The position numbers and the translations under genes were made by a program. A stretch of 64,000 bases of DNA from an uncultured Phycisphaerales bacterium (GTDB taxonomy: Bacteria; Planctomycetota; Phycisphaerae; Tepidisphaerales; Tepidisphaeraceae), in assembly GCA_963755915.1 (NCBI GenBank), contig CAVWLP010000002.1, positions 2,944,001 through 3,008,000 on the forward strand, in the 5' to 3' direction. The notes beneath the pieces were generated by a model. The model worked only from the letters and a program-made list of their open reading frames with translations, searched no databases and was not told the origin of the DNA. Positions within the stretch are counted from its first letter, which is position 1; the number at the start of each line of letters is the position of its first letter. This document shows positions 5,502 to 63,114 of the stretch, piece after piece.

Positions 5502-5550
5502 ACGCACAAATTCCGAATCCCCTCCTTGTATCCTCTTATATCTCCTTGTA

Positions 5551-5592
5551 TCCCCTCCCCTGGTACTCCGGGGGAGGGTTAGGGTGGGGGCC
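5551..5592 (+). repeat. Repeat family B (TCCCCTCTCCCGGTACTCCGGGAGAGGG...GGGTGAGGG), copy 1 of 5
   Basis: Hairpin plus G-rich tail; co-oriented copies at 24423-24460 (partial), 29386-29427, 47581-47622 and 53234-53275. Confidence 0.9.
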
Positions 5593-5693
5593 CGTGCACC
5601 AACAACCAAGGATTTCATCAGACCTGCTCGAAAATCCGAATTCGAATCGATGAAAATCCAAGCCGAGTTCTAATTGCGATCTCAGGAGCCCTT

Positions 5694-10350: not shown

Positions 10351-10355
10351 TTCCC

Positions 10356-10485
10356 GCCCAACACCCCAGGGCCGCCCCGAACGTCATCAGGCCAGCCAAA
10401 TGCTATAGCAGCGGAACCGCCTGCAACATACGAGTCACCGCCTCTTCTCGTCACCAACACCGTAACCGAAAAGACTCTTCTTCTT
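10356..10485 (+). repeat. ~125-bp dispersed repeat family A, copy 1
   Basis: GCCCAACACC...GAACGTCA..AGGCCAGCC...GCGGAACCGC...ACGAGTCACCG...CTCGTCA...AACCGAAAA.ACTCTT; six further copies. Confidence 0.9.
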
Positions 10486-14439: not shown

Positions 14440-14533
14440 ACGAAAAATTCGAAACGCAAAACTCGAACGATAGGCCGTTTCGAATTTTAAATTTCGAATT
14501 TGATTCGTCATTCGAATTTCGAATTTCGAGTTT
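14440..14533. repeat. TTCGAA(TT)-rich short tandem repeat tract (family F)
   Basis: TTCGAATTTGATTCGTCATTCGAATTTCGA core; related tracts at 5627-5650, 19039-19095, 33958-34033, 39084-39172 and 45969-46042. Confidence 0.85.
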
Positions 14534-18941: not shown

Positions 18942-19175
18942 CGCCAGATTCTGTGTACCGGCGGGGCCCTGATCTTGCAACCTTTGCTGGATAGCTCCGC
19001 TCCGTCAGATGCACAACGGTCGCTACTACCGCCTGAAGTTTCGGACATTCGAATTTCGAATTTGATTCGTCATTCGAATTTCGAGTTTCGAATTTGGGCT
19101 GCGGGCACTACCCACGCAAGGCTCGCCTGGTTTTTATTGCTTTGAGCCGCCCCCACACCGTAAACTACCCCACAC

Positions 19176-24364: not shown

Positions 24365-24523
24365 AATTTCTCCGCAATAAGCTCCACCATTGTACCCGCC
24401 GTCCCCAAAAATTCGCCTTCGATCCCCTCCCCTGGTACCCCGGGGCTAGGGTGGGGGCTCGTCCGCAGTGGGGGGTGTTACGCCCTTGACGCCCGCCCCT
24501 CCCCACCACAACAATATCTCATC

Positions 24524-24874: not shown

Positions 24875-24908
24875 TCCTCCCGCAACCAGTTTAGTTCCGC
24901 TTACTCCC

Positions 24909-24939
24909 GAAACGCCCACGGCGCCGCCGTGGGGAATTC
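24909..24939 (+). repeat. Palindromic repeat family D (GAAACGCCCACGGCGCCGCCGTGGGGCATT), copy 1 of 5
   Basis: Near-identical co-oriented copies at 33888-33917, 48681-48711, 52021-52051 and 55556-55586. Confidence 0.92.
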
Positions 24940-27679: not shown

Positions 27680-27695
27680 CCCCCATCCCCTCCCC

Positions 27696-27720
27696 GTTTA
27701 GCGGCCGCGTTTACGCGGCG
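27696..27720 (+). repeat. GTTTAG-type REP-like hairpin family E1 (GTTTAGCGGCCGCGTTTACGCGGCG)
   Basis: Identical copies at 41315-41339 and 45937-45961. Confidence 0.9.
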
Positions 27721-27737
27721 TCCCCCCCGGAATCCCT

Positions 27738-29449
27738 TCACTTCCCCAACTTCTTCAACCCCGGATCCAACTCATACGCCATGGAAAGCTCCACTCTCCC
27801 CAAACTCTTGTCCCCAAACCTAAGTTCCCACATCCCTAGCTCAAAATGCCCATTCGCATCCTCCGGATTGCTCTTAACGACTGCCTCAAACCACTTCCTC
27901 CCCGCATCCCTAAACGCCGGATTTTTCTCCTTCACCCCCAGCATCTCCAGCGCGATCCCATAGTTCACCATGATCTGCGGATCATGAATCTCCGCCTCGA
28001 TATCCACCCGCAGATGTTTCTCCGCCTCCCAGTAATCCCCCCGGTGCAGCAAAATCACGCCCAAATTGTCATTCGCCGTCCAGTCCCCCGGATTACACGC
28101 CAGCGCCACCTCATATTCCGCGACCGCATTATCCGTCTGGCCCATCTTTTCATACGCCACCCCCAGCCCCGAGTGCGCCACCGATGATTTCGGATTCGTC
28201 CGTTCCCACTGCCCATCAAACGCAAGGTCATTGAAATAATACTGTGCCCGCCCAAACGAGATCGCCCCCATCCCCAAAACCCACAAGACTGCCGCCACCG
28301 CACAAGCCCCAATCGCCCGCGGCTTCTTAACCCGCGAAACCACCCCCGCAACCACCGCCGCGAACCCCACCCCCGCCAGCGCCACATACCTCTCCGAATA
28401 CCCCGCCTCCTGTTCCGCCACCAGGTGCCCGTCGGAAGCTGCATCAAAACAAACCACGCCCCCCAGAAAACTCCCGCCCGCCAAATCCCCACCCTCCACA
28501 CCGCCACAACCATCCCCACCCCAAAAATCCCCGCCACCACCACCCTCCACAAAGAAAACCAAACCTCCACCGGCGGCTCATACCGCAACTCCCCAAACGG
28601 TAACACCACCGTCTGCACCCCATACAAAATCGACAACCACACATCCCCCGGATGCTCCCAAAAATCCAGATGAATCGACCTCCCCGAAAAAATAAAATGC
28701 CGCAACCCAAAATATCCCGCGAGGACCAAAACAATCACACCCCACCGAACTCCCCCGTTTAGCCGCGACCCGAAGGGAAGCGCTTCTCTTTTTCGCAAAA
28801 CCAAATCCCCCAAAAAAAACATCCCCCCCAAAACCACCGCCTGCTCCTTGGACAATAACCCCAGCACAAAAACAAACATCGCCCCCGCAAACCATCCCCA
28901 CCCGCTTTTCAAATACATCCACATCCCCAGTGGAATAAAAAACATCGGCATCAACGATTCCCTCCCCGACGCCGCCGGATACACACACTCGCTCGTCGCC
29001 GGATGCAGCGCCACCCAAAGCGCCCCCAACCCCGCCGCAAAAAATCCAATCCCAAACTCCCCACTCCTAAGCAGCAGATAAACCGCGACAAACACTAGCC
29101 CCGCCAACCCCGCATTAAAAACATGAAACCCCCGCGGCTCCGCACCCCAAACCCCGCGCTGAATCGCCAGCGTCGCCCTCGTCACCGGCCGGTAATAAAG
29201 AAAATTCAAATAATGCGGCTGCCCAAACAACCCCGCCAATTCCCGCCCGCTCACCTTCGCCGGCAGATCCTCAATCACAATATGATCATCAAACACAAAC
29301 TGATTGTTCCACGACGCCCACGCATAAAACACCGCTACCCCCACCCCAATCACCCCCACAAACACCATCTCCCGCCACCGTCTTGCCCCCTCTCCCGGTA
29401 CTCCGGGAGAGGGCTGGGGTGAGGGCCGTGAAAGAATTCGAGGCCACAT
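27738..29449 (-). CDS. TMTC-like GT-C membrane glycosyltransferase with C-terminal TPRs; frameshift near 28430, start uncertain
   Basis: FVFDD, YYRPV, FHVFN, LHPATSECV...GR and LLSKEQAV; second frame has SERY then TPRs. Confidence 0.75.
28757..28784 (+). repeat. GTTTAG-type REP-like family E2 (GTTTAGCCGCGNCCCGNAGGGNAGC), here inside a CDS
   Basis: Other copies at 33822-33847, 51602-51629 and 60712-60736. Confidence 0.85.
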
Positions 29450-30954: not shown

Positions 30955-30981
30955 GCGTCTCCTGTTCAGAATTCTCTTCCC

Positions 30982-31107
30982 GCCCAACACCTTGAGGCCG
31001 CCCCGAACGTCACCAGGGCGGCCCTGTGTCATCGCAGCGGAACCGCGTTTCCATATACGAGCAACCGCATCTTCTCGTCACCAAAACCGTAACCGAAAAT
31101 ACTCTTC
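30982..31107 (+). repeat. ~125-bp repeat family A, copy 2
   Basis: GCCCAACACC...GCGGAACCGCGTTTCCATATACGAGCAACCGC...AACCGAAAATACTCTT. Confidence 0.9.
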
Positions 31108-31159
31108 ATAATGCTCGCGAACACAACAGTTACGAAACGCGACAAAAATCATTGCCACC

Positions 31160-32659: not shown

Positions 32660-33871
32660 ATGTCATTTTCTTCAGGCACCGTCTCCATGCGTCGTTTCTC
32701 CGTCCTCGGCTCCCACCCAAAGTCCATCGACCAATCCCATCTCGACGCCCTCGAAAAGCACAAAATCAACCCCCAGGACTCCGGAAGTGTAGAAATCGAC
32801 TACGGCTGGACCGCCGGCCGCCATATCTTCGACACCCAGTTTTCCTTCGAGCACAACGTCTTCAACGACGCCCTCTCTTTCGCCCTCCGCGTCGACACCA
32901 ACCGCGTCCCCGCCGAAATCCGCGCCGCCTTTAAAATCATGGAGGAAGACGCCCTCGTCGCCCAAAATCCCTCGGGTTTCATCAGCAACAAACAAAAAAA
33001 GACCGTCCGCGAGACCCTCTCGCAAAAAATCGACGACGAGCTCCGCACCGGCAAATACCGCCGCAGCAGGCTCACCCCCATCCTCTGGGATTTCCCCACC
33101 AACACCCTCTATTCCCCGGCTACCAGTTCCGCCGCCGAAAAACTAATGGAACTCTTCGAACGCACCTTCGGCCTCGAGCTCCAGCCCCTCAGCGCCGGCT
33201 CCCTCGCCCTGAACCTCTTGAAATCCCAGGCCCATCGCCGCGACTACGAAGACCTCCGCCCCACCCGTTTCGTCCTCGCCGACGGCGGTGATTCCCACTA
33301 CCCCGACTACCCCTGGGCCGCCAAAGGCCCTCAGCCCAAAGACTTCCTCGGCAACGAATTCCTCCTCTGGCTCTGGCACGAAGCCGACCGCAACCAGGGC
33401 GTAATCAAAACCGACCCGGCCGAAATCACTCTCTTCATCGACAAGCTTCTCGACCTGGATTGCGCCTACGGCCAATCCGGCCGCGACACCCTCCGCGCCG
33501 CCGGCCCCGCCCAAATGCCCGAAGCCCTCGACGCCCTCCGCTCCGCAAAAGTCCCCAGAAAACTAGGCCTCATCCTAGACACCGGCCAGCAATTCTCCCT
33601 CACCCTCAGCGCCGAACCCCTCTCAATTTCCTCCGCCCGTCTCCCCGACGTAGAAGACGCCGAAACCCCGCGCGTCCTCTTCGAAGAGCGCATCATGCTC
33701 CTGCGCGACCTCTGGCGCGCCATCGACCACCTCTTCGCCACATTCCTAAAGAATCGCACCACATCCCACTGGGAATCCCAAACCAATGCAATCCGCAAAT
33801 GGATTCTCACACCCCCTCCCCGTTTAGCCGCGCCCCGAAGGGAAGCCCTCCCCGAACCCGCCCCCGTCTAA
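32660..33871 (+). CDS. RdgC-like recombination-associated protein
   Basis: MSFSSGTVSMRRF, YGW, FALRVD..RVP, FERTFG..L, DFLGNEFLLWLW, ERI. Confidence 0.65.
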   Translation: MSFSSGTVSMRRFSVLGSHPKSIDQSHLDALEKHKINPQDSGSVEIDYGWTAGRHIFDTQFSFEHNVFNDALSFALRVDTNRVPAEIRAAFKIMEEDALVAQNPSGFISNKQKKTVRETLSQKIDDELRTGKYRRSRLTPILWDFPTNTLYSPATSSAAEKLMELFERTFGLELQPLSAGSLALNLLKSQAHRRDYEDLRPTRFVLADGGDSHYPDYPWAAKGPQPKDFLGNEFLLWLWHEADRNQGVIKTDPAEITLFIDKLLDLDCAYGQSGRDTLRAAGPAQMPEALDALRSAKVPRKLGLILDTGQQFSLTLSAEPLSISSARLPDVEDAETPRVLFEERIMLLRDLWRAIDHLFATFLKNRTTSHWESQTNAIRKWILTPPPRLAAPRREALPEPAPV

Positions 33872-34035
33872 ACTTCGCCACCTCCCCGAACGCCCACGGC
33901 GCCGCCGTGGAGCATTCACCCGTGTAGCCGCCGCACTTGTGCGGCGCTCTTCCCCCGTTTCGAATTTCAAATTTCGAATTTGACCTGTCCCGTGCGCCGG
34001 GGTTCGTCATTCGAATTTCGAGTTTCGAATTTCCC

Positions 34036-39070: not shown

Positions 39071-39175
39071 CTTTCAACTGATGTCCGAAATCCGAAATCC
39101 CAATTTCGATTCGAATTTCGAATTTCCCTCATTCGAATTTGATTCGAATTTCGAGTTTCGAATTTCGAGTTTCCC

Positions 39176-41305: not shown

Positions 41306-41344
41306 CGATAACCTGTTTAGCGGCCGCGTTTACGCGGCGCGACT

Positions 41345-42519
41345 TTAACCCAACGGCGCACACGTACGCACCGCTATCGAACTTTCTGCCGTATCCCTTG
41401 CCCATCGGTCCGCTTCGAGCAAATCGTCCAGAGACGGTTGCTCCTGAATACGATGGAGCGAAATTGTATGTTCCACAATACCCGAAATCTCGCCAAAGGC
41501 GATTCGCCCCCCCATAAAGGCCGCAACCCCTGCCTCATTTGCCGCGTTTAACACCGCCCCAGCCGTCCCACCCGCCTCCGCAACCTTATACGCCAGCTTC
41601 AAAGCCGGAAACCTCTCAAAGTCCGGCGGCTCCAGATTTAGACTATGACATTTCGTCCAGTCCATCCGTCTCGAACACCCCACCGCACGATCCGGATAAG
41701 TCAGCGCATACTGAATCGGCGTCCGCATATCCGGCGGCGACATCTGCGCCATCACCGACCCATCCACAAACTCCACCATCGAATGAATCACCGACTCCGG
41801 ATGTATCATGATCTGCACCTGCTCCGGCTTCAGATCAAACAGCCAGCAAGCCTCAATAAGTTCCAGCGCCTTGTTAAACATCGTCGCCGAATCAATGGTA
41901 ATCTTATTCCCCATCCTCCACGTCGGATGATTCAGCGCGTCCTCCACCGTCGCGCTTCGAATCTTCTCCAAAGGCGCGTTTCTGAAGGGTCCTCCACTCG
42001 CCGTAAGAATCACCCGCTTGACTTCGCTCCCCCGTCCACAAGCCATCGCCTGAAATATCGCCGAATGCTCCGAATCCACAGGCAGCAATTTCACCCCGCG
42101 CTGCGCGCCTCCGGAATGAGCAGCGACCCCGCCACAACCAGCGCCTCCTTATTCGCCAGCGCCAATGTTTTCCCCGCCCTTACCGCCGCCAATGCCGCCG
42201 GCAACCCCGCCGCCCCCACAACCGCCGCCACCACAATATCCACCTCCTCATGCCGCGCCAGATCGACGAGCCCGCTCTCCCCCACAAAAATCCGCGGCCC
42301 CCCAACCCCCAGCAATTCCTTCAACTCCTCCACTCGCTCCCGATCCACAATCGCCACCGAATGCGGCTCAAACTCCTTCACCTGCCCCGCCAGCTTCCCC
42401 ACCTGCCGATGCGCCCCCAACCCCACCGCCCGGTAGGGGGGCCCCAGATGCCGAACCACGTCCAGCGTACTGCACCCAATCGATCCCGTAGACCCAAGAA
42501 TCGCGACGCGTTTGCTCAC
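41345..42519 (-). CDS. dxr: 1-deoxy-D-xylulose-5-phosphate reductoisomerase; frameshift near 42093
   Basis: LGSTGSIG, LALANKE, LPVDSEHSAIFQ, LTASGGPF, KITIDSATM. Confidence 0.95.
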
Positions 42520-42581
42520 GACTCCACACTATAACGACGAACCTCCACCCCGTGTAGCCGCCGGGCTTCCCCGGCGCTGAT

Positions 42582-44204
42582 TTACAGTCCCCGCAGCGCC
42601 GCTCCCACTTCCCCCACAACTCCCTCCCAATCCCCCTCAACCTTCTGCCTCACCACGCGCACGCTCGGATACCACGGACTATCCTGCTTCCCGCGCATCC
42701 ACCTCCAATCCCCCTCCGTCCGCAGCAGCAAAAACGTCTTCTTCCCCATCGCTCCCGCCAGGTGCGCCACTGCCGTATCGACTGAAACCACCGCATCCAG
42801 ATTCGCCATCAACCCCGCCGTCTCCGCAAAATCGCTCAGTTCCTTCGTCCGATCCAACATCCCCATCCCCGCCCCCTCCGCCCCGCGCCCTTTCTGTAAG
42901 CTCACCCACCGAACCCCCGCGAGCCCCATCAGCGGTCTCAGCATCTCTACCGGCATCGAACGTTTCCGACCAATCCGATGCTTCGGTGACCCCGCCCATA
43001 CCACGCCCACCCGCTTTCCCTTCTCCGCGCCCAATGCTCCCGCCCACTTCCTCTCAATCTCCCCATCCGCCCGCAAATACACCTCCGCCGGAATCGTCTC
43101 CACCGTCGTCCGAAACGCCCACGGCAAACTCAGCAGCGACGCATGAAAATCAAACGCCCCCATTTCCTCCCCATCAAAAACCATCTTCACCCCCATTCCC
43201 CCAAACAGCCGCCCCAATTCTCTCTGCACGCGCAATGTCACCAACGCCCCCATCCGCGCCACCATCGGCACATACCGCACAAACTGAATCGCATCCCCCA
43301 GTCCCCCCTCATCGTGCAGCAGAATTCTTTTTTCCGTTATCTCCTGCCCCTGCCACTGCGGGAAAGGATATTTCGCCCGCGCCGCCAGCGCATGTGCCCG
43401 CCATTCATACTCCTCAAACCCCCTCCCGTAATCCCCCGCCGCAAGCAGCACCAGCGCCAGATTGTAATGCGCCGGCCCCGACCTCGGGTTGATCGCCAGC
43501 GCCCGCTCAAGCGCCGCCACCGCCTCCTCATGCCGCCCCAGCGATTCCATCGCCGCCCCAATATTCGCGTGTGCATTGGCCAGTTTCTCGTCCTGCTCGA
43601 TCGCTTTTCGATACGCCGATATCGCCTCCTCATCGCGCCCCGTCTCATGCAGCGCCACGCCCAGATTGATCTGCGCCTCCGCCAGTTGCGGATTCAGCTC
43701 CAGCGCCCGCCGGCTCGCCGCCATTGACTCCTCAAATCGGTCCAGCCGATTCAGCGCCGCCCCCAGGTTGCTGTACGCATTGGAAAAATCTCCCCGCAGC
43801 TCAACCGCCCTCGCAAACGCCTCGGCCGCCTGACCTATCTGTTTGTTCCGCAGCAGCAAAACCCCCAGGCTGTTATACGCCTCCGCAAAATCCCCTCTCA
43901 ACTCAATCGCCTTCCGATGCCCCTCCATCGCCTCCTCGACCCTCCCCAGGTTGGCAAGAATCATCCCCCGATTATTCCAAAACTCCGCGCACTCCGGATC
44001 CCCCGCAATCGACCGATCAATCAACTCCAGCCCCGCCTGATTTTCCCCCTTCTCTCCCAGCAAAACCCCCAGCAGATGCAGCGCATCCACATCCTCCGGC
44101 CACTCCCCCAGCACCCGCCGGTAAATCCTCTCCGCCCCCTCCAGCTCCCCAACCGAATGCAGCCTCATCCCCTCTTCAAGTTGTAGATCCACTTTCTCGT
44201 CCAT
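42582..44204 (-). CDS. TPR-repeat protein with C-terminal GT9-like glycosyltransferase domain
   Basis: TPRs; EGGLGDAIQFVRY, VGVVWAG, VDTAVAHLAGAMG, DWRW...SPWYPS. Confidence 0.85.
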   Translation of the reverse strand: MDEKVDLQLEEGMRLHSVGELEGAERIYRRVLGEWPEDVDALHLLGVLLGEKGENQAGLELIDRSIAGDPECAEFWNNRGMILANLGRVEEAMEGHRKAIELRGDFAEAYNSLGVLLLRNKQIGQAAEAFARAVELRGDFSNAYSNLGAALNRLDRFEESMAASRRALELNPQLAEAQINLGVALHETGRDEEAISAYRKAIEQDEKLANAHANIGAAMESLGRHEEAVAALERALAINPRSGPAHYNLALVLLAAGDYGRGFEEYEWRAHALAARAKYPFPQWQGQEITEKRILLHDEGGLGDAIQFVRYVPMVARMGALVTLRVQRELGRLFGGMGVKMVFDGEEMGAFDFHASLLSLPWAFRTTVETIPAEVYLRADGEIERKWAGALGAEKGKRVGVVWAGSPKHRIGRKRSMPVEMLRPLMGLAGVRWVSLQKGRGAEGAGMGMLDRTKELSDFAETAGLMANLDAVVSVDTAVAHLAGAMGKKTFLLLRTEGDWRWMRGKQDSPWYPSVRVVRQKVEGDWEGVVGEVGAALRGL

Positions 44205-44658: not shown

Positions 44659-44693
44659 GCCCACAAATATACTCGAATCCCACAATTACCTGA

Positions 44694-44823
44694 GCCCAAC
44701 ACCCCAAAGCCGCCCCGAACTTCACCCGGCCAGCCATGTGTTCCCGCGGCGGAACCGCCCGTGATATTCGAGTCACCGGCTACCCTCGTCGCACAAACCC
44801 CAACCGATAAAAATCCCTCTCTT
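44694..44823 (+). repeat. ~125-bp repeat family A, copy 3
   Basis: GCCCAACACC...GCGGAACCGCCCGTGATATTCGAGTCACCG...AACCGATAAAA. Confidence 0.9.
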
Positions 44824-45917: not shown

Positions 45918-46041
45918 AATGGAAACCCGATCCCCCGTTTAGCGGCCGCGTTTACGCGGCGCGTCTTCATTCGAATTTCAAATTTGTCCGGGCGCAGCCG
46001 GGATTCGAATTTCGAATTTGATTCGGATTTCTGGTTTCGAG

Positions 46042-47567
46042 TCACACCCCCGCCATCTCCCCAAACCTCTCCCTCAAATTCCCATACAACTTCCCATAAA
46101 CCCCATACCCCCTCCCATAAACCCCCTCAGTCTTCCCATTCGGCTTCCGCCTCCTCACGCACTTCACGCAACTCCTCGCCGCCTCTTCCACGCCGCTCCA
46201 AACCCCGGTCCCCACTCCCGCCAATATCGCCACCCCATACGCCGGCCCCTCCGCCGCGCTCGTGCTCACGATCGGCTGCCGATAAATATCCGCCTGCAAT
46301 TGCAGCCAAAAATCGCTCCGCGCCCCTCCTCCGCTCGCCCTCACCTGCGAAACCGGTATCCCCATCCCCTCCATGATCGTCAGCGCATCTTTCATCCCAT
46401 ACGTCACCCCCTCCAGCAGCGACCGAATCAGCATCCCCCGCGTCGTCCGCGCCGTCACCCCGATCCACCCCCCGCGCGCAGCGGATCCGGATACGGACAC
46501 CTCTCCCCGGTCAGATACGGCAAAAACTGCAACCCCTCACACCCCGCCGGCGCTTTCTTCGCCTCTTCAATCAACAGCACATACGGATCCACTTTCTTCT
46601 TCTTTGCGACTGCCACTTCCTCACCCGCCAGATTATTCCGAAACCACTGAAACGACCCGCCCGCCGAAAGCATGCATCCAAACACGCACCACTTCCCCGG
46701 CACGGCATGACACATCGTATGAACCCTCCCCTTCGGATCCCTCGTAGGCTCATCGCTATGCGCAAAAAACACTCCGCTAGTCCCCAGCGTCGCGCTCACA
46801 ATCCCCGTGGAAGTAATCCCATTCCCCACCGCCCCCGCAGCCTGGTCGCCGCCGCCCCCAACCACCGCCGTCCCCGGCGACAACCCCAATTCCTCCGCCG
46901 CCGAAACCGTCAGATACCCGGTAATCTTCGGCGACTCAAACACCTCCGGCATCAGCGCCCTATCAATCCCCAATAGCCCCATCAACCGATCCGACCACTT
47001 CCGATTCACCACATCCAGCAGCAGCGTCCCGCTCGCATCACTCACCTCCGTCGCATACTCCCCCGTCATTCGCAACCGAATAAAATCCTTCGGCAGCAAA
47101 ATATGTTTCGTCTTCTCATAAACCCGCGGCTCATGCTTCCTCACCCACAAAATCTTCGGCGCCGTAAACCCCGTCAACGCCGGATTCGCCACCATCTCAA
47201 TCAACCCCGCCCGCCCCCCAGCCTTCTCCTCAATCTCCGCGCACTCTTCCGCCGTCCTCTGATCATTCCAAAGCAGCGCCCGCCGCAGCGGCTTAACCCC
47301 ATCCCCCAGAAAAACGCTCCCATGCATCTGCCCCGAAAGCCCGATCCCCTTGATCTCCTTCTCTTTGACTTTCGCCTTCTTCCGAACCTCCCGCGTCGCC
47401 CTCACCACCGACTTCCACCAATCCCCCGGATCCTGCTCCGACCACCCCGGCTTAGGCGAATAAATCGGATGCTCCGCCATCCCCGTCGCCAGCACCTTCC
47501 CCCTCTCATCGCAAATGACGGTCTTCGTCCCCGAAGTCCCAACATCAATTCCCAGCAAATACGCCAT
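46042..47567 (-). CDS. xylB: Xylulokinase; frameshift near 46475
   Basis: [46 protein letters not shown]. Confidence 0.93.
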
Positions 47568-47674
47568 ATTCCATTTCTTTCCCCCTCGCCCGGTACTCCG
47601 GGAGAGGGTTGGGGTGAGGGCCATTTGAGCATTTGTTATTTGCCGCCACACCGGATAACAAATGCCTTCCAGCC

Positions 47675-48655
47675 ATGACAATATCCATTTCCCACCTGGC
47701 CGAAAAGATTAACGCCGCCGTCGTCGGCGACGGTGGGGCGGTCATCTCTTCCATCGCCACCCTCGAAGACGCCCAACCCGGCCAACTCAGCTTCCTCTCC
47801 AACCCCAAATACGAAAAGCTCCTCGCCACCACCAAAGCCACCGCCGTCATCGCCCCCAACCACACCCGCTCCAAATCCGTCACCCTCCTCCGCTGCGACG
47901 ACCCCTACTTCGCCTTCATGCAAGCCATGGTCCTGATCCACGGCCACCGCAAACATCCATTCACCGGCATCCACCCCAACGCCCACGTCGACCCCACCGC
48001 CAAAATCGCCGAAGGCTGCACGATCTACCCCGGCGTCTACGTCGGCCCCCGCGCCACCTTGGGCCGCGACTGCCTCCTCTACCCCAATTCCGTCGTCTAC
48101 GATGACTGCATCCTCCACGACCGCGTCACCCTCCACGCCGGCGCCGTCATCGGCGTAGACGGCTTCGGCTACGCCACCCACGCCGGCGCCCACCACAAAA
48201 TCCCCCAAATCGGCATCGTCGAACTCATGAACGACGTAGAAATCGGCGCCAACGCCACCATCCAGCGCGCCACATTAGGAAAAACCATCATCGGCGCAGG
48301 CACCAAAATCGACGACCTCGCAGTCATCGGCCACGGCACCACCATCGGCGACCACGCCCTCATCGTCTCCCTCTCCGGAATCGCCGGCTCCACCAAAATC
48401 GGCCACCACCTCACCCTCGGCGGCCAGGCCGGCATCGCCGGACACCTCCTCCTCGGCAACCACGTCTCCATCGCCGCCCGCGCCGGTGTCGCCACCAACG
48501 CCCCCGACAACGTCATCCTCTACGGAGCCCCCGCAACCCCCGCCCCCCACGGCCGAAAGGCCATCACCCTCCTCGCCCAACTCCCCGAAATCGTCGACCG
48601 AATCCGAAAATTAGAAAAATCCCGAAATAAATCCCCCCAAAAACGTCACAAATAA
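47675..48655 (+). CDS. lpxD: UDP-3-O-acylglucosamine N-acyltransferase
   Basis: LSFLSNPKY, hexapeptide repeats, DGFGY, KIPQIG, VEIGAN.TI.R, TKID. Confidence 0.94.
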
Positions 48656-48724
48656 CAGCCGACATGACATCTACTATATGGAAACGCCCACGGCGCCGCC
48701 GTGGGGCATTTATGCCCATTCCCT

Positions 48725-48795
48725 GCCCAACACCCCAATGCCACCCCGAACTTCACCAGGCCAGCCATGTGTCCCCGCGGCGGAACCGCGTTTTA
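48725..48795 (+). repeat. ~125-bp repeat family A, copy 4, left half (interrupted by IS110)
   Basis: GCCCAACACC...GCGGCGGAACCGCGTTTTA, then IS sequence. Confidence 0.9.
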
Positions 48796-48870
48796 TAATC
48801 GCATGAAAGGCCATCTCCCTGCCGGAAGTTAACATTCCGGTTTTGGTGTCATTCACACAAGGAGATAGCC

Positions 48871-50070
48871 ATGAAGTTATACGACAAGGTAGTTCAGGTA
48901 GGGCTGGACGTCCATCGGAAGTTCTCGTCCGCCAGTCTGCGCGACGCTTCCGGGAAGGTCATTGCTCGCGAACGCCTGGATCACCTGGATCGCCAAAAGC
49001 TTCGAGAGCGAATCGCTCAGTGGCCGCGAGGCACGCCGGTGATCCTGGAAGCGACATTTGGCTGGGGATGGCTCAGCGATGAGTTGCAGATTTTGAACAT
49101 GCAGCCCCACCTGGCCTCGAGCCGCAAAGTGGCGGCATGGCGGGAAGGACGCGGGATCGCCAAGAGCAACAAGGTCGATGCCGACCTGCTCAGTGAACTC
49201 TGGAACGAAAAACCGATATTTAAGCGAGGCATCATGAAGCGCTGGTGGGAAGTCTGGCTGGCCCCACGCGAGATTCGTGATCAGCGGGAGCTGCTGCGCC
49301 ATCGGATGACCCTCGTTCAGGCTCAAACGCAGTTGAAAAATCGCATTCACGCGACGCTGCACCGCCATGGAATCGTCAGCGAGCTCACCGACCTCTTCGG
49401 TGTGCAGGGCCGGCGTTTCCTGTCGCTGCTCACCGAGGACAAGACCCTGAGCCTCTCAGGACGCCAGACGCTCAAGGAAGATCTCATGCTGCTGGATTCT
49501 CTGCGTCGCCTGATCGCACGGGCCACCCGCCGGTTCCGCGCGACCATGAAACGATCGGAGATCGGCCAGCGCCTGATGACCGTGCCGGGCATCTCCACCG
49601 TGCTGGGATATACGCTGGTCGCCGAGATCGGCCGAATCGATCGTTTCTCCTCCAGTCGATGCCTGCTCCAATACAGCCTGCTGGCGCCGCAGGCCGACGA
49701 CAGCGGAGAAGATCGCGATGCCAAGCCCATCGGCCGCCGACTTGGTCACGCCGGTCGCACTACCCTTCAGTGGGCCTTTATTCAGGCCGCCCACTCGGCA
49801 GTGCAAAGGGACGCTTTTTTGCGAGAACTTTTCAATCGCCGTACCAACAACGGCAAACAGGACCGCGGTCGCGGCTACATCACCGTCGCCAACCGCATAT
49901 GTCGGATCGTCTATTCAATGTGGAACAACAACCAGGATTATCAGGAGGTGCCGCCCCCAAGACCGGGAAGCAAAAGACATAAGGAACTGATCTCGTCCGG
50001 AAGTGGGCCAGCCCTGGCTCGAATTGGCCATGAGCCCGAAGCAATTCAGGCTCGAGAGGCCACGTTATAA
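48871..50070 (+). CDS. IS110 family RuvC-like recombinase/transposase
   Basis: GLDVH, ILEAT, KSNKVDA, coiled coil, TVPGIS...AEIG.IDRF, DSG serine loop; GGAG RBS. Confidence 0.95.
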   Translation: MKLYDKVVQVGLDVHRKFSSASLRDASGKVIARERLDHLDRQKLRERIAQWPRGTPVILEATFGWGWLSDELQILNMQPHLASSRKVAAWREGRGIAKSNKVDADLLSELWNEKPIFKRGIMKRWWEVWLAPREIRDQRELLRHRMTLVQAQTQLKNRIHATLHRHGIVSELTDLFGVQGRRFLSLLTEDKTLSLSGRQTLKEDLMLLDSLRRLIARATRRFRATMKRSEIGQRLMTVPGISTVLGYTLVAEIGRIDRFSSSRCLLQYSLLAPQADDSGEDRDAKPIGRRLGHAGRTTLQWAFIQAAHSAVQRDAFLRELFNRRTNNGKQDRGRGYITVANRICRIVYSMWNNNQDYQEVPPPRPGSKRHKELISSGSGPALARIGHEPEAIQAREATL

Positions 50071-50199
50071 TTGGGCCGCCCGCGCCGGATGAGATCATGT
50101 GCCGCTCGGCCAAACGCTGTTGATCGGGCCCGGCCAGCACGAATGGATATATGGACCGCCGAGAGGCCAGTCACCAGCCGGCAGACGGACGAAGAGGTC
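49989..50199 (+). ncRNA. Predicted bridge/seek RNA of the IS1111-type element
   Basis: Closing stem 49989-49999/50186-50199; target arm 50003-50083; donor arm 50084-50182; loop segments match the target flank and the donor junction. Confidence 0.8.
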
Positions 50200-50246
50200 T
50201 CGGAATGAAAAAGAAGTAACCGCTTTTCGCGAGGAGAATTTTTTTG

Positions 50247-50270
50247 TTGATCGGGGAAGCCTTTCATGGA
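50247..50270 (+). promoter_or_regulatory. -35 half of the circle-junction promoter
   Basis: TTGATC (50247-50252)-16 nt-GA|TAAT, formed only when 50270 is joined to 48796. Confidence 0.65.
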
Positions 50271-50330
50271 TATTCGAGCCACCGCATTTCCTCGTCACTC
50301 AAACCACAACCGAAAATACTCTTCTTCTTC
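50271..50330 (+). repeat. ~125-bp repeat family A, copy 4, right half
   Basis: TATTCGAGCCACCGC...CTCGTCACTCAAACCACAACCGAAAATACTCTT. Confidence 0.9.
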
Positions 50331-50460
50331 TCTCTGTATGCCGACTCGAATTCCTCACTGGACAAGAAAGACACCATCCCATCGCAACAATTTTGCACTA
50401 CCTTGTTCTGAATCCCCCAACATGTTCTAATTTAATTTTAACAGCAAACCCCGCGGAAAT

Positions 50461-51585
50461 ATGGGCTTCATAGAACGCATGAAATGGTGGCACTGGACCC
50501 TCATCAGCATCGCTCTCGGTGCATTCCTCGCCTACATCAACTCCGGCGGCGCCGACACCTCCGTCAACCACGAATCCGTCTCCACCGTAACCTTCGAAAC
50601 CGGCCTCCTCCTCCGCCCCTGGGTCGACCCCAGCAACCCCAACCGCCGCGAGGCCTGGTTCAGCGGCCTCGTCATCCACCCCGTCCAGGACGTCCCCGTC
50701 GGCGACCACACCGTCAAGATGCAGCTCATCAGCTTCACCCGCCTCCTCGCCCCCGACAAAGACCACCCCTCCGGCTCAACCCAAACCCAATGGTGCTGGG
50801 TGCCTTTCCCCTACGAGCCCACCCCACGCCAGAGCGCCCGCGCCAACAGCCAGCCTTATCCTGGCACCAGCGTCTACGTCGGAAAAAAAGGCGACACCCT
50901 CGACTCCCTCGCCGCTCGCTTCTATCACAAGTCCACGCCCCTCGGCATCCACTCCATCATCTATGCCAACTCCTCCCTCCGCGAAGCCCACGGCCCATCC
51001 CAAATCAAAATCACCCCCGGCCGCGCCTACTGGATCCCCTGGAACCCCGCTGACGGACACAACGTCACCGACTTCATCCTCGCCGCCAACCAATATCTCC
51101 AAAAGCAGCAGGGCGATAACGCCCTCCTCGTCTCCTTCCATTACCGCTGGTGGGAAAACTCCAAATACACCTACGAAGCCTGGATGATCGCCTCCTTCCT
51201 CCTCGTCGGCGTCATCTGGCCCACCCTCCTCTCCGTCATGATCAAAGGCGGCTACGGCCGCATGACCCCCGACGAATACAACCTAGCCCGCTTCAAAGGC
51301 GGCCCCGAGCCCACAACCGCCAAACCCACCGCTCCCGTCGTCACCCAATCCGACATGGACCGCCTCCGCGAGCTCGAAGAATCCCTCGCCGCCTCCATCA
51401 AAGCCTCTCCAACGGAAACTCCCGTCCCCGCACCCGTCGCCGCCGCCCCCCCCGAAGTCAAAAAACTCACCGCCACCCCGGAAACTTCAAAGATCGTCCC
51501 CCAATCCCCCGAAGAACCCACAGAATACACCGGAGAATTTTACCCCGTTGTAAAACCCCACGAAAAACCCAAAGATACCCCCTAG
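50461..51585 (+). CDS. Two-TM membrane protein with LysM-like domain and Pro/Glu-rich tail
   Basis: YVGKKGDTLDSLAARFY...IIYAN...ITPGRAYWIP. Confidence 0.6.
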   Translation: MGFIERMKWWHWTLISIALGAFLAYINSGGADTSVNHESVSTVTFETGLLLRPWVDPSNPNRREAWFSGLVIHPVQDVPVGDHTVKMQLISFTRLLAPDKDHPSGSTQTQWCWVPFPYEPTPRQSARANSQPYPGTSVYVGKKGDTLDSLAARFYHKSTPLGIHSIIYANSSLREAHGPSQIKITPGRAYWIPWNPADGHNVTDFILAANQYLQKQQGDNALLVSFHYRWWENSKYTYEAWMIASFLLVGVIWPTLLSVMIKGGYGRMTPDEYNLARFKGGPEPTTAKPTAPVVTQSDMDRLRELEESLAASIKASPTETPVPAPVAAAPPEVKKLTATPETSKIVPQSPEEPTEYTGEFYPVVKPHEKPKDTP

Positions 51586-53219: not shown

Positions 53220-53275
53220 GAACCGCGCATTTATCCCCTCTCCCGGTACTCCGGGAGAGGGCTAGGGTGAGGGCC

Positions 53276-54064
53276 TTGAGCCAGACCCGACCTCCAACAA
53301 AAACCGCCCTAGTCACCGGCGCCTCCACAGGCATCGGCCGCGACCTCGCCCACCTCTTCGCCCAGGACCACCACAACCTCGTATTGATTGCCCGCACCCA
53401 ACCCGCCCTAGAACAACTCGCCGCCACTCTAAAACACCAACATAAAATCGAAGTCCAAATCATCCCCCAGGACCTCTCCGACCCCGCATCCCCCCAAAAA
53501 ATCTTCGACCAACTCCAATCCCAACCCATCGACTTCCTGATCAACAACGCCGGCTTCGGCTCCCACGGCCCCTTCGCCGACTCCGACATCCAGACAACTC
53601 TCTCCATGCTCCAACTAAACATCACCACTCTCACCCACCTAACCCGCCTCTTCCTCCCCCAGATGCTCCAGCGCCGCTCCGGAAAAATCCTCAACGTCGC
53701 CTCCCTCGCCGCCTTCCTCCCCGGCCCCCTCATGGCCGTCTACTACGCCACCAAGGCCTATGTCCTTAGCTTCTCCGAAGCCCTCTCCTCCGAGCTCGCC
53801 GGAACCGGCATCACCGTCACCGCCCTCTGCCCCGGCCCCACCCAAACCGAATTCCAAGCCCGCGCCGGAATCTCCCACTCCCTCCTCTTCAAATCCAAGG
53901 TCATGCCTTCCATGACCGCCGCCCGCATAGGCTACCGCGCCATGCTAAAAGGCCATCGCACCTCCATCCCCGGCCCCTTAAACAAACTCTCCGCCCTCTC
54001 CACCCGCCTCCTCCCGCGCCAAATCACCGCCGCCGTAGCCAAAAAACTAAACCAATCCCGCTAA
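53276..54064 (+). CDS. Short-chain dehydrogenase/reductase
   Basis: TGASTGIG, NNAGFG, YYATK; TTG start immediately after a family B repeat. Confidence 0.9.
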   Translation: MSQTRPPTKTALVTGASTGIGRDLAHLFAQDHHNLVLIARTQPALEQLAATLKHQHKIEVQIIPQDLSDPASPQKIFDQLQSQPIDFLINNAGFGSHGPFADSDIQTTLSMLQLNITTLTHLTRLFLPQMLQRRSGKILNVASLAAFLPGPLMAVYYATKAYVLSFSEALSSELAGTGITVTALCPGPTQTEFQARAGISHSLLFKSKVMPSMTAARIGYRAMLKGHRTSIPGPLNKLSALSTRLLPRQITAAVAKKLNQSR

Positions 54065-55498: not shown

Positions 55499-56611
<1,113 letters not shown>

Positions 56612-58293: not shown

Positions 58294-58442
58294 CTACCCG
58301 CCCCAAAAATGAGCCGGGCTGTCCCCAGCCCGTCCCCCCGCGACCCAAAACTCGCTTTCCCATGTAGCCGCCCCCGCTTGCGGGGTGCGTTTTTCGAACC
58401 CCTCAAATCGCGGGTTCCCCTTCTTGTCTCCGGTCCAAACAC

Positions 58443-58572
58443 GCCGAACACCCCAAGGCCGCCCCAAACGTCACCAGGCCAGCCATGTGTCCCCGCGGCG
58501 GAACCGCACGCGATATTCGAGTAACCGCCTTCCCTCGTCAAACAAACCTCAACCGAAAATAGTCTTTATTCT
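58443..58572 (+). repeat. ~125-bp repeat family A, copy 5
   Basis: GCCGAACACC...GCGGAACCGCACGCGATATTCGAGTAACCGC...AACCGAAAATAGTCTT. Confidence 0.9.
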
Positions 58573-62695: not shown

Positions 62696-62760
62696 AATTT
62701 TCAGTCTACGCCATTTCCAAGCGCCCATCACCATCGCTCCCGAAGCCCTGCCACCTCACA

Positions 62761-63020
62761 GCTCCCTCGAACGTAACCAGGGCAGCCATGTGCTCCCCCC
62801 GCGGAACCGCCTGTTATATACGAGTCACCGGATCCCCTCGTCACTCAAACCGAAACCGAAAAAACTCTTTCTCTGATTGACCTCCCAAAAAATGCAAAAA
62901 ACGGATCCCCACAGTTTTGCAAAACACGCCCGGCCATGTGCTCCCCCCGCGGAACCGCCTGTTATATACGAGTCACCGGATCCCCTCGTCACTCAAACCG
63001 TAACCGAAAAAATCTTCCTC
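62761..63020 (+). repeat. ~125-bp repeat family A, copies 6 (62761-62874) and 7 (62930-63020), in tandem
   Basis: Two near-identical GCCATGTGCTCCCCCCGCGGAACCGCCTGTTATATACGAGTCACCGGATCCCCTCGTCACTCAAACCG units. Confidence 0.92.
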
Positions 63021-63114
63021 CATTTGATTTACCCTCAACAAATACAAAAAAATTCACCCCACGTTCCAAAATAGGTCCAAAACGTACACCCTTTGGACCT
63101 GTATATAGAGGCAC

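Follow-up and report, generated by a model that had tools for sequence, protein, structure and literature searches.

The window analysed here, a 64,000-nucleotide stretch of DNA from an uncultured Phycisphaerales bacterium, contains an insertion sequence that interrupts a REP-like repeat and carries a transposase gene, the 3' end of which overlaps a predicted bridge/seek RNA gene (Table 1). As an A is present on both sides, the boundary of the element is ambiguous within ATA.

Table 1. Positions of the element, its target repeat, its gene and the segments of the predicted RNA (numbered from the first letter of the window)
Feature	Position	Strand	Basis or remark
Left half of the interrupted REP-like target repeat	48722-48797	+	
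Terminator-like hairpin in the left target-repeat half, then TTTTATA	48776-48790	+	
IS110-family, IS1111-type insertion sequence	48798-50270	+	1473 bp; TA at 48796-48797 and 50271-50272
4-nt extension ATCG before the left subterminal inverted repeat	48798-48801	+	
Left subterminal inverted repeat CATGAAAGGC	48802-48811	+	sequence; kept in 87 homologous loci
Transposase ORF, 399 aa	48871-50070	+	Pfam, NCBIfam
Predicted bridge/seek RNA gene (closing stem, target arm, donor arm)	49989-50199	+	folds, homologue alignment
Closing stem P1, 5' strand GATCTCGTCCG	49989-49999	+	partner 50186-50199, or 50085-50096 in the MFE fold
Predicted right-target guide UGGCUCGAAU (5' strand, target loop)	50015-50024	+	reverse complement of A+TTCGAGCCA, 50272-50281
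Predicted left-target guide CGUUAUAAUU (3' strand, target loop)	50063-50072	+	sequence, covariation
Donor-arm outer stem P3.1, 5' strand GCCGG	50084-50088	+	pairs with CCGGC at 50178-50182; homologues, RNAalifold
Candidate left-end (right-donor) guide AUGAGAUCAU	50089-50098	+	AUGAGAU complementary to ATCGCAT (48798-48804), 6/7
Predicted right-end (left-donor) guide AUGGAUA + U	50143-50150	+	equals right end ATGGA, core TA, first right-flank base
Extra hairpin in the donor-arm 3' strand, GAGA loop here	50152-50176	+	sequence, homologue alignment
Closing stem, 3' strand CGGACG/AGGTC	50186-50191/50195-50199	+	
-35-like hexamer TTGATC	50247-50252	+	promoter complete in the circular form alone
Right subterminal inverted repeat GCCTTTCATG	50259-50268	+	sequence; 87 homologous loci
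GA after the right subterminal inverted repeat	50269-50270	+	
Right half of the interrupted target repeat	50271-50328	+	

The element and its transposase

The genome holds four copies of the 1473-bp element that are 100% identical, each of them at a TA inside one variant of the REP-like repeat; all four lie at CGCGTTTT-(A)TA-TTCGAG, a sequence that is also found in three empty sites. The variant interrupted in the window reads ...CGCGTTTT-TA-TTCGAGCC, and the three identical empty sites that remain in the genome read ...CGCGTTTTATATTCGAG..., whilst the empty site CTGTTATATTCGAGCCCCC is nominally a better match to the left guide described below and yet has no insertion. The element, an IS110-family member of the IS1111 type, is very probably still active or was so until recently.

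The initial annotation had placed the element in the IS110 family, and this is borne out by its transposase. IS110/IS1111 proteins are recognised by an N-terminal RuvC-like DEDD domain (PF01548) together with a C-terminal domain (PF02371), and both are found here, with E-values of 7.4e-9 (36 bits, cut-off 29) and 1.6e-13 respectively, as is the NCBIfam model NF033542, "IS110 family RNA-guided transposase" (161.5 bits, cut-off 140). The narrower assignment to IS1111 also holds. Elements of the group have subterminal inverted repeats that are 7-17 bp long and are followed outwards by short terminal extensions; CATGAAAGGC and GCCTTTCATG are 10 bp long with extensions of 4 nt and 2 nt, the left end is short, with 73 nt ahead of the ATG, and the right non-coding end is long, running 200 nt past the stop and ~300 nt past the last conserved protein motif. 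Across 87 homologous loci the junctions follow the pattern LT-TA/ATCN CATGAAAGGC...GCCTTTCATGGA/TA-RT, and the TA core that had been proposed was recovered at 71 of 72 left and 70 of 72 right junctions.

Among 46 homologues D13, E60, D103 and G279 are invariant, D105 and S278 are nearly so, and the PQADDSG of the transposase fits P-x4-SG. No clear counterpart of the canonical catalytic D-x-x-D-A can be seen in the family, which carries an invariant KSNK-VDAD; in weak alignments to ISCro4 and IS4321 the place of the third catalytic Asp is taken by an invariant Asn100 or by a 3-residue gap, and a PDB search with the N-terminal 170 aa alone gave no relevant match. When a sample of 400 genomes of the phylum was searched with the protein, with a threshold of E <= 1e-30, only the element's own genome matched, both sample and threshold being too narrow; scans of collections gave 158 loci. 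The family comprises more than 1100 protein relatives and more than 80 loci with mapped junctions, and its members are found in genome bins labelled Tepidisphaeraceae, Phycisphaerae and other Planctomycetota. A literature search on IS110 elements in planctomycetes returned, judged by titles, no paper on the subject.

No sigma-70-like site was found in the linear sequence from 48600 to 50450. If the two ends were joined they would read TTGATC-16 nt-GATAAT, the -10 hexamer being assembled from the GA at 50269-50270, the core TA and the AT at 48798-48799. The same arrangement can be seen at the junctions of 83 homologous loci, with TTGAC[N] in 61, a spacer of 17 in 61 and GATAAT in 65. Metatranscriptome contigs from two of three runs cover the RNA region only of relatives that are ~90% alike, in libraries of a kind that can hold DNA. 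The third run gave no contig, and in the other two some parts of the element were left uncovered, results that carry no weight in either direction.

Fold of the predicted RNA

Every sequence string from which the initial annotation had built its RNA is present at the position given for it. The minimum free energy (MFE) of the single sequence is -98.4 kcal/mol (z = -3.05, with 0/200 shuffles as good), and this fold contains the stems that had been drawn for the first, or target, arm. The closing stem and the outer stem of the second, or donor, arm are missing from it: 49989-50000 pairs with 50085-50096 instead of with its distal partner, and a fold with the distal closing helix is 8 kcal/mol worse (-88.9 vs -96.9). 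Both stems are, however, supported by compensatory changes in 84 homologues. The outer stem of the donor arm is 99.4% paired with 3/6 pairs changed on both sides, and the distal closing stem is 83.9% paired with 5/9 pairs so changed, as compared with 95.8% and 1/10 for the alternative closing helix of the MFE fold. These changes favour the donor-arm and closing helices as they were predicted, and the single-sequence MFE was rejected as a guide to the closing stem, the comparative evidence being preferred. Across the homologues 87.4% of cells in the whole fold are paired and 23/40 pairs are changed on both sides (0/500 shuffles as good), and RNAalifold by itself predicts the target-arm helices and the outer stem of the donor arm; it predicts neither closing helix. 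As the helix preferred on energy is 95.8% paired in the homologues, the three-way form may not be the sole or main fold.

It is possible, if somewhat unlikely, that the RNA has two states, in which 49989-50000 toggles between the proximal 50085-50096, giving a closed target-only hairpin, and the distal 50186-50199, giving an open three-way bridging form, such that a switch or processing would time the coupling of donor and target. The two partners are conserved near-copies of each other (CCGGAYGAGA and ACGGAYGAGA), the proximal helix is the more completely paired and is favoured by the 8 kcal/mol above, the distal helix has the more compensatory changes, and IS1111 seekRNAs are reported as both short and long species in the accounts of PMC11187229 and PMC13604230. 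Against this, the proximal sequence is perhaps conserved solely as a candidate left-end guide, and RNAalifold returns neither helix. The reading preferred here is a two-armed RNA for which the distal closing stem is predicted.

The extra hairpin that had been noted in the donor arm is present both in the sequence and in the homologues, and it makes the donor loop a three-way junction. It is 62.9% paired in fixed MAFFT columns, a low value because MAFFT misaligns a hairpin of variable length; a strict GNRA-capped hairpin is found in 26 of the 84 homologues with 12 different stem pairs. By eye the hairpin is general across the alignment and the tetraloop is not. It had also been suggested that this RNA family may be undescribed, which can be taken no further than the result of a scan of 48500-50500 against Rfam 15 (E <= 1), in which no relevant family was found. 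The sole match, Ysr276, was rejected, with 13.4 bits vs a gathering score of 100 and a position on the opposite strand inside the ORF.

Predicted guide strands and the sequences they match

The strand TGGCTCGAAT of the target loop, at 50015-50024, has its exact reverse complement ATTCGAGCCA in the right flank at 50272-50281, and nowhere else in the 64-kb window is there an exact copy of either; when one mismatch is allowed the window holds 7 matches vs 5.4 expected, which is not above chance. The opposite strand of the loop includes CGTTATA at 50063-50069, and the match to the left flank had been correctly given as TTATA: at the cognate site the guide's UUA and UA are left flank and core, and the AU that follows equals the first two bases of the element. 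In all, the match of the left guide takes in the TA core and 2-3 nt of left flank, and that of the right guide 6-9 nt. The order of the guides, right before left, is likewise confirmed: 50015-50024, the complement of the right flank as read on the top strand, lies 5' of 50063-50069, which has the same sequence as left flank and core on that strand.

Covariation between loop and flank had been set in advance as a test, and it was found for both strands in 72 homologous elements with 41 different right-flank 6-mers. For the right guide the longest match is 6.03 nt with cognate and 3.40 nt with non-cognate flanks (0/10000 permutations as good), the cognate flank being best or tied in 59/72 loci, whilst for the left guide the match rates at positions -1 to -3 are 0.94/0.71/0.50 with cognate and 0.64/0.30/0.26 with non-cognate flanks (again 0/10000). 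Furthermore, the guide-loop columns are the most variable of the alignment (1.33 and 1.49 bits) and the scaffold is the least (0.15-0.5 bits). Between the RNA in the window and its four closest relatives, substitutions are enriched only weakly in the guide loops (Fisher p 0.022 to 0.26). A role of the target loop as a guide is well supported by its covariation with the flanks across homologues.

The last ~29 codons of the transposase gene cross the 5' half of the target arm and the stop is a UAA in the target loop. The homologues read the same conserved nucleotides in two frames (SSGxGPAL vs RPGTGQP), and therefore the conservation there is at the RNA level. An overlap of this kind, in a region that is GC-rich and folds stably, would also be in keeping with a cis-regulatory or terminator structure of the transposase mRNA that contains no guides and matches its flanks by chance. 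Such a structure cannot explain covariation over 41 targets that none of 10000 permutations equals, no terminator-like site was called within 49989-50270, and we consider it highly improbable; the target loop is taken in what follows as a predicted guide.

In the donor arm ATGGATA, at 50143-50149, had been identified with the right end plus core, and this identity extends to 76/76 loci, of which 64 have GGA in both RNA and right end and 12 have GAA in both, with none discordant. In 70/76 loci the base that follows the core is the same as the first base of the flank (0/10000 permutations as good), and the 13 informative cases divide into 7 that agree and 6 that disagree. The number of independent events behind the donor-arm evidence is small; the 12 loci with GAA have further derived characters in common and probably form a single clade. 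For AUGAGAU a role as left-end guide is plausible, its 6/7 match at 50089-50095 being accompanied by a few co-changes, although the case is weaker than had been claimed. Both this strand and the left end are nearly invariant across the family and for this reason their covariation is weak: complementarity is 5-6/7 across loci with few co-changes (L029, L126), an ACGCG in the 5' donor strand goes with an ATCG left end in 5/5 loci, and opposite the fourth base of the left end, which may be C, G, T or A, most RNAs keep an invariant A.

Given this pattern it could be asked whether the target arm alone guides, the donor arm being a protein-binding scaffold or a processing/termination element and the transposase recognising the ends through the subterminal inverted repeats, not by base pairing. 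The donor strands are nearly invariant (0.21 and 0.55 bits), as are the IS ends, which places the donor match mostly beyond the covariation test; the left-end guide is mismatched and in most loci ignores the variable fourth base; the MFE fold sets apart a 108-nt target hairpin; and seekRNAs of 82-96 nt with target matches alone are described as co-purifying with IS1111 transposases (PMC11187229). This reading nevertheless seems unlikely to us, as the unpaired AUGGAUA equals right end plus core in all 76 loci and tracks the change from GGA to GAA in 12/12, the base after the core tracks the flank in three separate lineages (T, A and C), ACGCG accompanies ATCG wherever it occurs, and the long-range stem that builds the donor arm shows compensatory changes.

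Proposed mechanism and comparison with known systems

The best explanation of the locus, to which we would give a probability of about 85%, is a guide RNA of an IS110/IS1111-type element with a target arm and a donor arm. Whilst the element borders, target sites, conserved fold and guide/flank covariation were computed here, the mechanism that follows is what we infer from them. The element would leave as a circle, and the joining of its ends would create a sigma-70 promoter reading into the transposase gene and then into the RNA gene downstream. The RNA would fold as a closing stem bearing two arms, with both target guides in the internal loop of the target arm: the 5' strand of this loop would pair with the core A and 6-9 nt of right flank, on the top strand, and the 3' strand, as it carries the sequence of the left flank (2-3 nt) and the TA core, would pair with the bottom strand. 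The donor arm would form a three-way junction in which the AUGGAUA strand stands for right end plus core and the AUGAGAU strand is largely complementary to the left end. The transposase, on both arms, would join circle junction and target and exchange strands at TA. The complete programmable recombinase of the initial annotation is, on this view, a predicted one.

Three additions to this scheme can be considered. The 3' strands of both loops may run 1-2 bases past the core into the other partner's sequence, with the UA+A(U) of the target loop matching the first bases of the element and the UA+N of the donor loop the first right-flank base; if true, each loop would match a recombinant junction, on the bottom strand, as a mirror image of the handshake guides of IS621. 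The 5' strand may toggle between its two near-identical conserved partners, that is between a closed target-seeking hairpin and an open bridging junction, and ribosomes finishing the transposase tail in the 5' arm might influence that switch. Taken jointly these would be features undescribed for IS621, a combination that we hold to be doubtful.

The locus adds a well-documented and apparently live, if predicted, RNA-guided recombinase of the IS1111 type and would account for the ongoing colonisation of one REP-like repeat variant in the genome. It also brings together about 40 natural guide/target pairs on one conserved scaffold, with a long right guide, a very short left guide, a TA core and a three-way donor junction, which is a ready data set for the pairing rules of IS1111-type RNAs, these being less studied than that of IS621.

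As is predicted for the RNA here, the IS621 bridge RNA is described as having two arms, one with a loop that binds the target and one with a loop that binds the donor, and in each loop both strands on either side of a 2-nt core are read (Durrant et al. 2024, PMC11208160; Hiraizumi et al. 2024, PMC11208158). From these two accounts further likenesses are that the right-target guide is followed by a U with which the last base of the right end can pair, much as with a handshake guide, and that the donor is a circle junction with a junction promoter, as is inferred here. The differences from the same descriptions are that the RNA lies at the right end of the element here and at the left in IS621, the order of guides in the loop is reversed, the core is TA where IS621 has CT, an extra hairpin makes a three-way junction of the donor loop, and one common closing stem encloses both arms. 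The proteins are distant, with E 7e-4 for a single sequence and 1.3e-8 with a profile, in the C-terminal half alone.

The closest named transposase found is that of IS4321/IS5075, of the IS1111 group, from an E. coli plasmid record; the IS4321 protein and the transposase here align over their full length with 28% identity (E 2e-20). The two share the KSNK...VDA motif region and the C-terminal P-x4-SG/TG region, and differ in the motif of the catalytic helix, which is KSNKNDFVDA in IS4321 and, with a gap of three residues, KSNK---VDAD here. The target of IS4321/IS5075 is given as the ends of Tn21-type transposons in the title of a reference cited by PMC11208160, whereas here it is a REP-like repeat. 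A further likeness is to ISPpu9 of Pseudomonas putida, described as an IS110-family member that sits in repetitive extragenic palindromic sequences and has the gene of a small RNA, Ssr9, downstream of its transposase gene (PMC12288879). According to the same source P. putida has extra solo copies of the RNA, whereas a genome-wide search here found neither solo RNA copies nor paralogous transposases besides the four IS copies.

A close likeness is to the IS1111-family elements for which seekRNAs are known, namely ISEc11, ISPa11, ISKpn4 and ISPst6 (Siddiquee et al. 2024, PMC11187229). As that paper describes them, their RNA lies in a long non-coding region downstream of the transposase gene, and the elements have subterminal inverted repeats. 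A single folded arm of the RNA contains two short stretches, one for each strand of the target, that overlap where insertion takes place; the stretch that is the complement of the top strand comes first, on the 5' side, and ISPa11 also has a repeated target, REP-type sequences. Relative to that description, the transposase family here is of 370-399 aa as against 330-350 aa, no plasmid-borne relative exceeds 30% identity to the transposase, ORF and RNA overlap, and the guides are of 2-3 nt plus core on the left and 6-9 nt on the right. Multi-loop donor arms (PMC11208160) and the right-guide-first order with a downstream RNA (PMC11187229) have already been published for IS1111 elements, as has the mechanism of the class (PMC11187229, PMC11208160, PMC11208158), and the predicted RNA is a well-supported but expected member of this recently described class, the known picture of which it leaves unchanged.

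The element, its transposase and its target repeat

Four copies of the element, 100% identical over 1472 bases (48798-50269), are present in the genome, and a search of the genome found no further copy of the transposase or the RNA region. Its borders are set by a family-wide junction pattern common to the mapped loci, in which left flank-TA is followed by ATCN CATGAAAGGC and, at the other end, GCCTTTCATGGA is followed by TA-right flank, so that there is a dinucleotide TA on each side. The 10 bp subterminal inverted repeats (CATGAAAGGC/GCCTTTCATG), the short left end (73 nt) and the long right end accord with the marks of the IS1111 group, which also include a specific target, as described in passages of two papers (PMC11187229; PMC11208160).

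The transposase ORF contains both Pfam domains of IS110-family transposases and scores 161.5 bits against a cut-off of 140 with the NCBIfam model "IS110 family RNA-guided transposase". The closest named transposase found is that of IS4321, with 28% identity over the full length, whereas the match to the solved IS621 and ISCro4 proteins is limited to the C-terminal half. The catalytic-helix motif is KSNKVDAD (residues 98-105), with N100 and D103 invariant and D105 nearly so in 46 homologues; KSNK-VDAD is invariant in the family, where IS4321 has KSNKNDFVDA and ISCro4 KTDAVDA. In weak alignments the third Asp of the DEDD tetrad of IS4321 and ISCro4 falls opposite N100 or a 3-residue gap. The four identical copies argue for an active protein, so the catalytic tetrad may be unusual.

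All four copies interrupt one and the same REP-like repeat, at ...CGGAACCGCGTTTTATA / ATATTCGAG..., which is present in seven copies in the window and, by a simple pattern search, at least 21 in the genome. In the repeat, a spacer that varies, ATA and (T/A)CGAG come after a conserved hairpin (GCGG CGGAA CCGC), and this hairpin with its T-run has a terminator-like score. The element is present in no spacer variant but GTTTT, where four sites are occupied and three empty. In X1, one of three metatranscriptome runs, a contig from a related organism joins 48787 to 50269, the halves of the target repeat having five other letters between them; this is a relative's repeat with an empty site. As for the other repeat families, one CCCCTC.CCCGGTACTCCGGG.GAGGG copy lies just upstream of the gene preceding the element, and a ...GAAACGCCCACGGCGCCGCCGTGGGG...-kind hairpin copy (48683-48710) is immediately left of the target repeat.

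Features of the element and repeat families in the window
Feature	Position	Remarks
IS1111-type element	48798-50270 (+)
Transposase ORF	48871-50070	399 aa
Candidate guide RNA	49989-50199
Right-flank target guide	50015-50024 (+)	TGGCTCGAAT
Left-flank target guide	50063-50072
Left-end donor strand	50089-50098
Right-end donor strand	50143-50150
REP-like repeat, intact	10353-10484, 30979-31111, 44691-44822, 58440-58571, 62743-62874, 62894-63022	intergenic, ~130 nt
REP-like repeat, interrupted	48722-48797 / 50271-50328	two halves
Second repeat family	5541-5603, 24413-24456, 29376-29438, 47571-47633, 53224-53286	palindromic core CCCCTC.CCCGGTACTCCGGG.GAGGG
Third repeat family	14490-14533, 19052-19095, 33989-34032, 39089-39172, 46008-46051	TTCGAATTTCGA-type units (AATTTCGAATTTGATTCG...)
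Short repeat family	27687-27726, 33913-33952, 41306-41345, 42543-42582, 45928-45967	GTTTAGCGGCCGCGTTTACGCGGCG hairpins
Short repeat family	24879-24939, 33857-33917, 55526-55586	...GAAACGCCCACGGCGCCGCCGTGGGG... hairpins

Homologous loci and the fold of the RNA

Protein matches at E <= 1e-20 numbered more than 1100 among 8000 candidates scored, mostly metagenomic with a few labelled, for example, Tepidisphaeraceae or Humisphaera. In two collection scans 158 loci were recovered; the RNA region was found in 105 of them by blastn with the window's 3' end, and in 87 of those both ends could be placed via the inverted repeats. In the homologue L009/L088 the element lies in a perfectly palindromic target (...GCCGGCTCGTA / TACGAGCCGGC...) and starts TATC instead of ATCN, with the RNA loop still UAAU.

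The stretch singled out in the initial annotation is located towards the 3' end of the element. Its sequence strings all lie where the annotation placed them, and folding the sequence by itself gives a stable structure (-98.4 kcal/mol, z = -3.05). The proposed architecture was a closing stem enclosing a target arm and a donor arm; the minimum free energy (MFE) fold contains the target arm, whose internal loop is symmetric (10 x 10), but not the closing and donor-arm stems, which cost 8 kcal/mol to force. Instead it closes the target arm via 49989-50000 : 50085-50096, engulfing the proposed ATGAGAT guide.

Both folds were compared on 84 non-identical RNA regions from 91 rows, leaving out L121 and L129 for their aberrant landmarks and L020, L043, L130, L139 and L142 for an unsuccessful landmark search. 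The whole proposed structure is paired in 87.4% of cells with 23/40 pairs changed on both sides (0/500 shuffles as good), the donor-arm outer stem in 99.4% with 3/6, the closing stem in 83.9% with 5/9 and the MFE-type proximal helix in 95.8% with 1/10, counts that overstate independence, the compensatory events representing about four lineages by eye. Of the 14 sequences with C replaced by U in the 5' strand, 9 have A as the distal partner and all 14 keep G as the proximal one. With no structure supplied, RNAalifold predicted the helices of the target arm and the long-range stem of the donor arm, and neither the distal nor the proximal closing helix. Given the pairing and both-side changes in homologues, together with the RNAalifold donor-arm stem, we accept the proposed architecture; conservation of the proximal pairing is high enough to make a second conformation containing it a live possibility.

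Target guides and proposed donor guides

Within the window the 10-mer TGGCTCGAAT has exact matches only in the loop and, as reverse complement, at 50272-50281, directly adjoining the right end. Loop sequences covary with the flanking targets across the 72 loci that have both, which carry 41 different right-flank 6-mers. With the core removed, the longest run shared exactly by the right flank and the reverse-complemented 5' loop strand averages 6.03 nt for cognate and 3.40 nt for non-cognate pairs, the cognate flank being best or tied best in 59/72. Counted outward from the core in a fixed register, the 3' loop strand agrees with the cognate left flank at -1/-2/-3 in 94%/71%/50% of loci against 64%/30%/26% for non-cognate flanks, with no signal at -5 and -6 in these loci. 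For either strand the observed value was reached in 0/10000 permutations. Going by match lengths and positional signal, the right guide is long and the left one very short.

In the window's copy the right guide is complementary to A+TTCGAGCCA at 10/10 positions and the left guide matches TTA+TA; at the other three copies the flank deviates at one to three of those 10 bases. A homologue with both loops identical to the window's (L090) sits at ...TCA-TA-TTCGAGCCA. Among the columns of the RNA, variability is highest in the guides (1.33 and 1.49 bits) and lowest in the scaffold.

The proposed right-end donor strand is borne out, with GAAUGGAUA equal to the right end ...ATGGA + TA in 76/78 loci compared, the remaining two lacking the motif in the columns used. 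Where the end is CATGAA (12 loci, which look like one clade) the RNA reads AUGAAUA in all 12. The base after UA is the first right-flank base in 70/76 (0/10000 permutations as good); in the 13 informative cases, those with a base other than G on either side, seven agree and six disagree, the agreeing bases being T (the window's clade), A (L016) and C (L143). The opposite strand, A(U/C)GAGAUCAU, remains a candidate left-end guide: it could pair with the left end ATCNCAT at 5-6/7 positions, but both partners are almost invariant and the sole co-changes are ACGCG with ATCG (all of five loci), L029 (GAAU with ATTC) and L126. The extra hairpin does lie 3' of the AUGGAUA strand, turning the donor loop into a three-way junction; its stem sequence is variable and a strict GNRA cap occurs in 26/84.

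In the metagenome contig L091 (2100-2160) the right end CATGGA-TA runs straight into GATGGACCGCCGAGAAGGCCAG, which in the donor-arm DNA of the element itself is the sequence that follows ATGGATA. It looks as if the element had recombined with, or inserted into, the guide-encoding part of a second copy, a part that mimics right end + core.

Expression and relation to known systems

No sigma-70-like promoter was found in the integrated element. Joined ends would give TTGATC-16 nt-GATAAT, the predicted -10 hexamer consisting of the core between the element's final two and initial two bases; of 83 loci, 61 have TTGAC[N] as the -35, 61 a spacer of 17 and 65 GATAAT as the -10. Such junction-promoter logic is described for the family in a section of PMC13604230. 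Contigs spanning 49878-50321 and 49938-50213 at <95% likeness came from two rhizosphere metatranscriptome runs, each of a different study, and a third run yielded none; the contigs derive from relatives with L009-type loop letters, and are at most a weak hint of transcription.

The last ~29 ORF codons cross the 5' half of the target arm and the stop is the UAA in the left-guide loop. In homologues the same conserved nucleotides are read in two frames (...SSGxGPAL... / ...RPGTGQP...), and because of this the conservation in the ORF tail belongs to the RNA and not the protein.

The interpretation in the initial annotation was correct in nearly all particulars and now has comparative evidence behind it, including the right-guide-first order: the top-strand complement comes first in the loop, as it does in IS1111 seekRNAs according to a portion of PMC11187229. 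The RNA of this element is a member of a class described in 2024 and no new kind.
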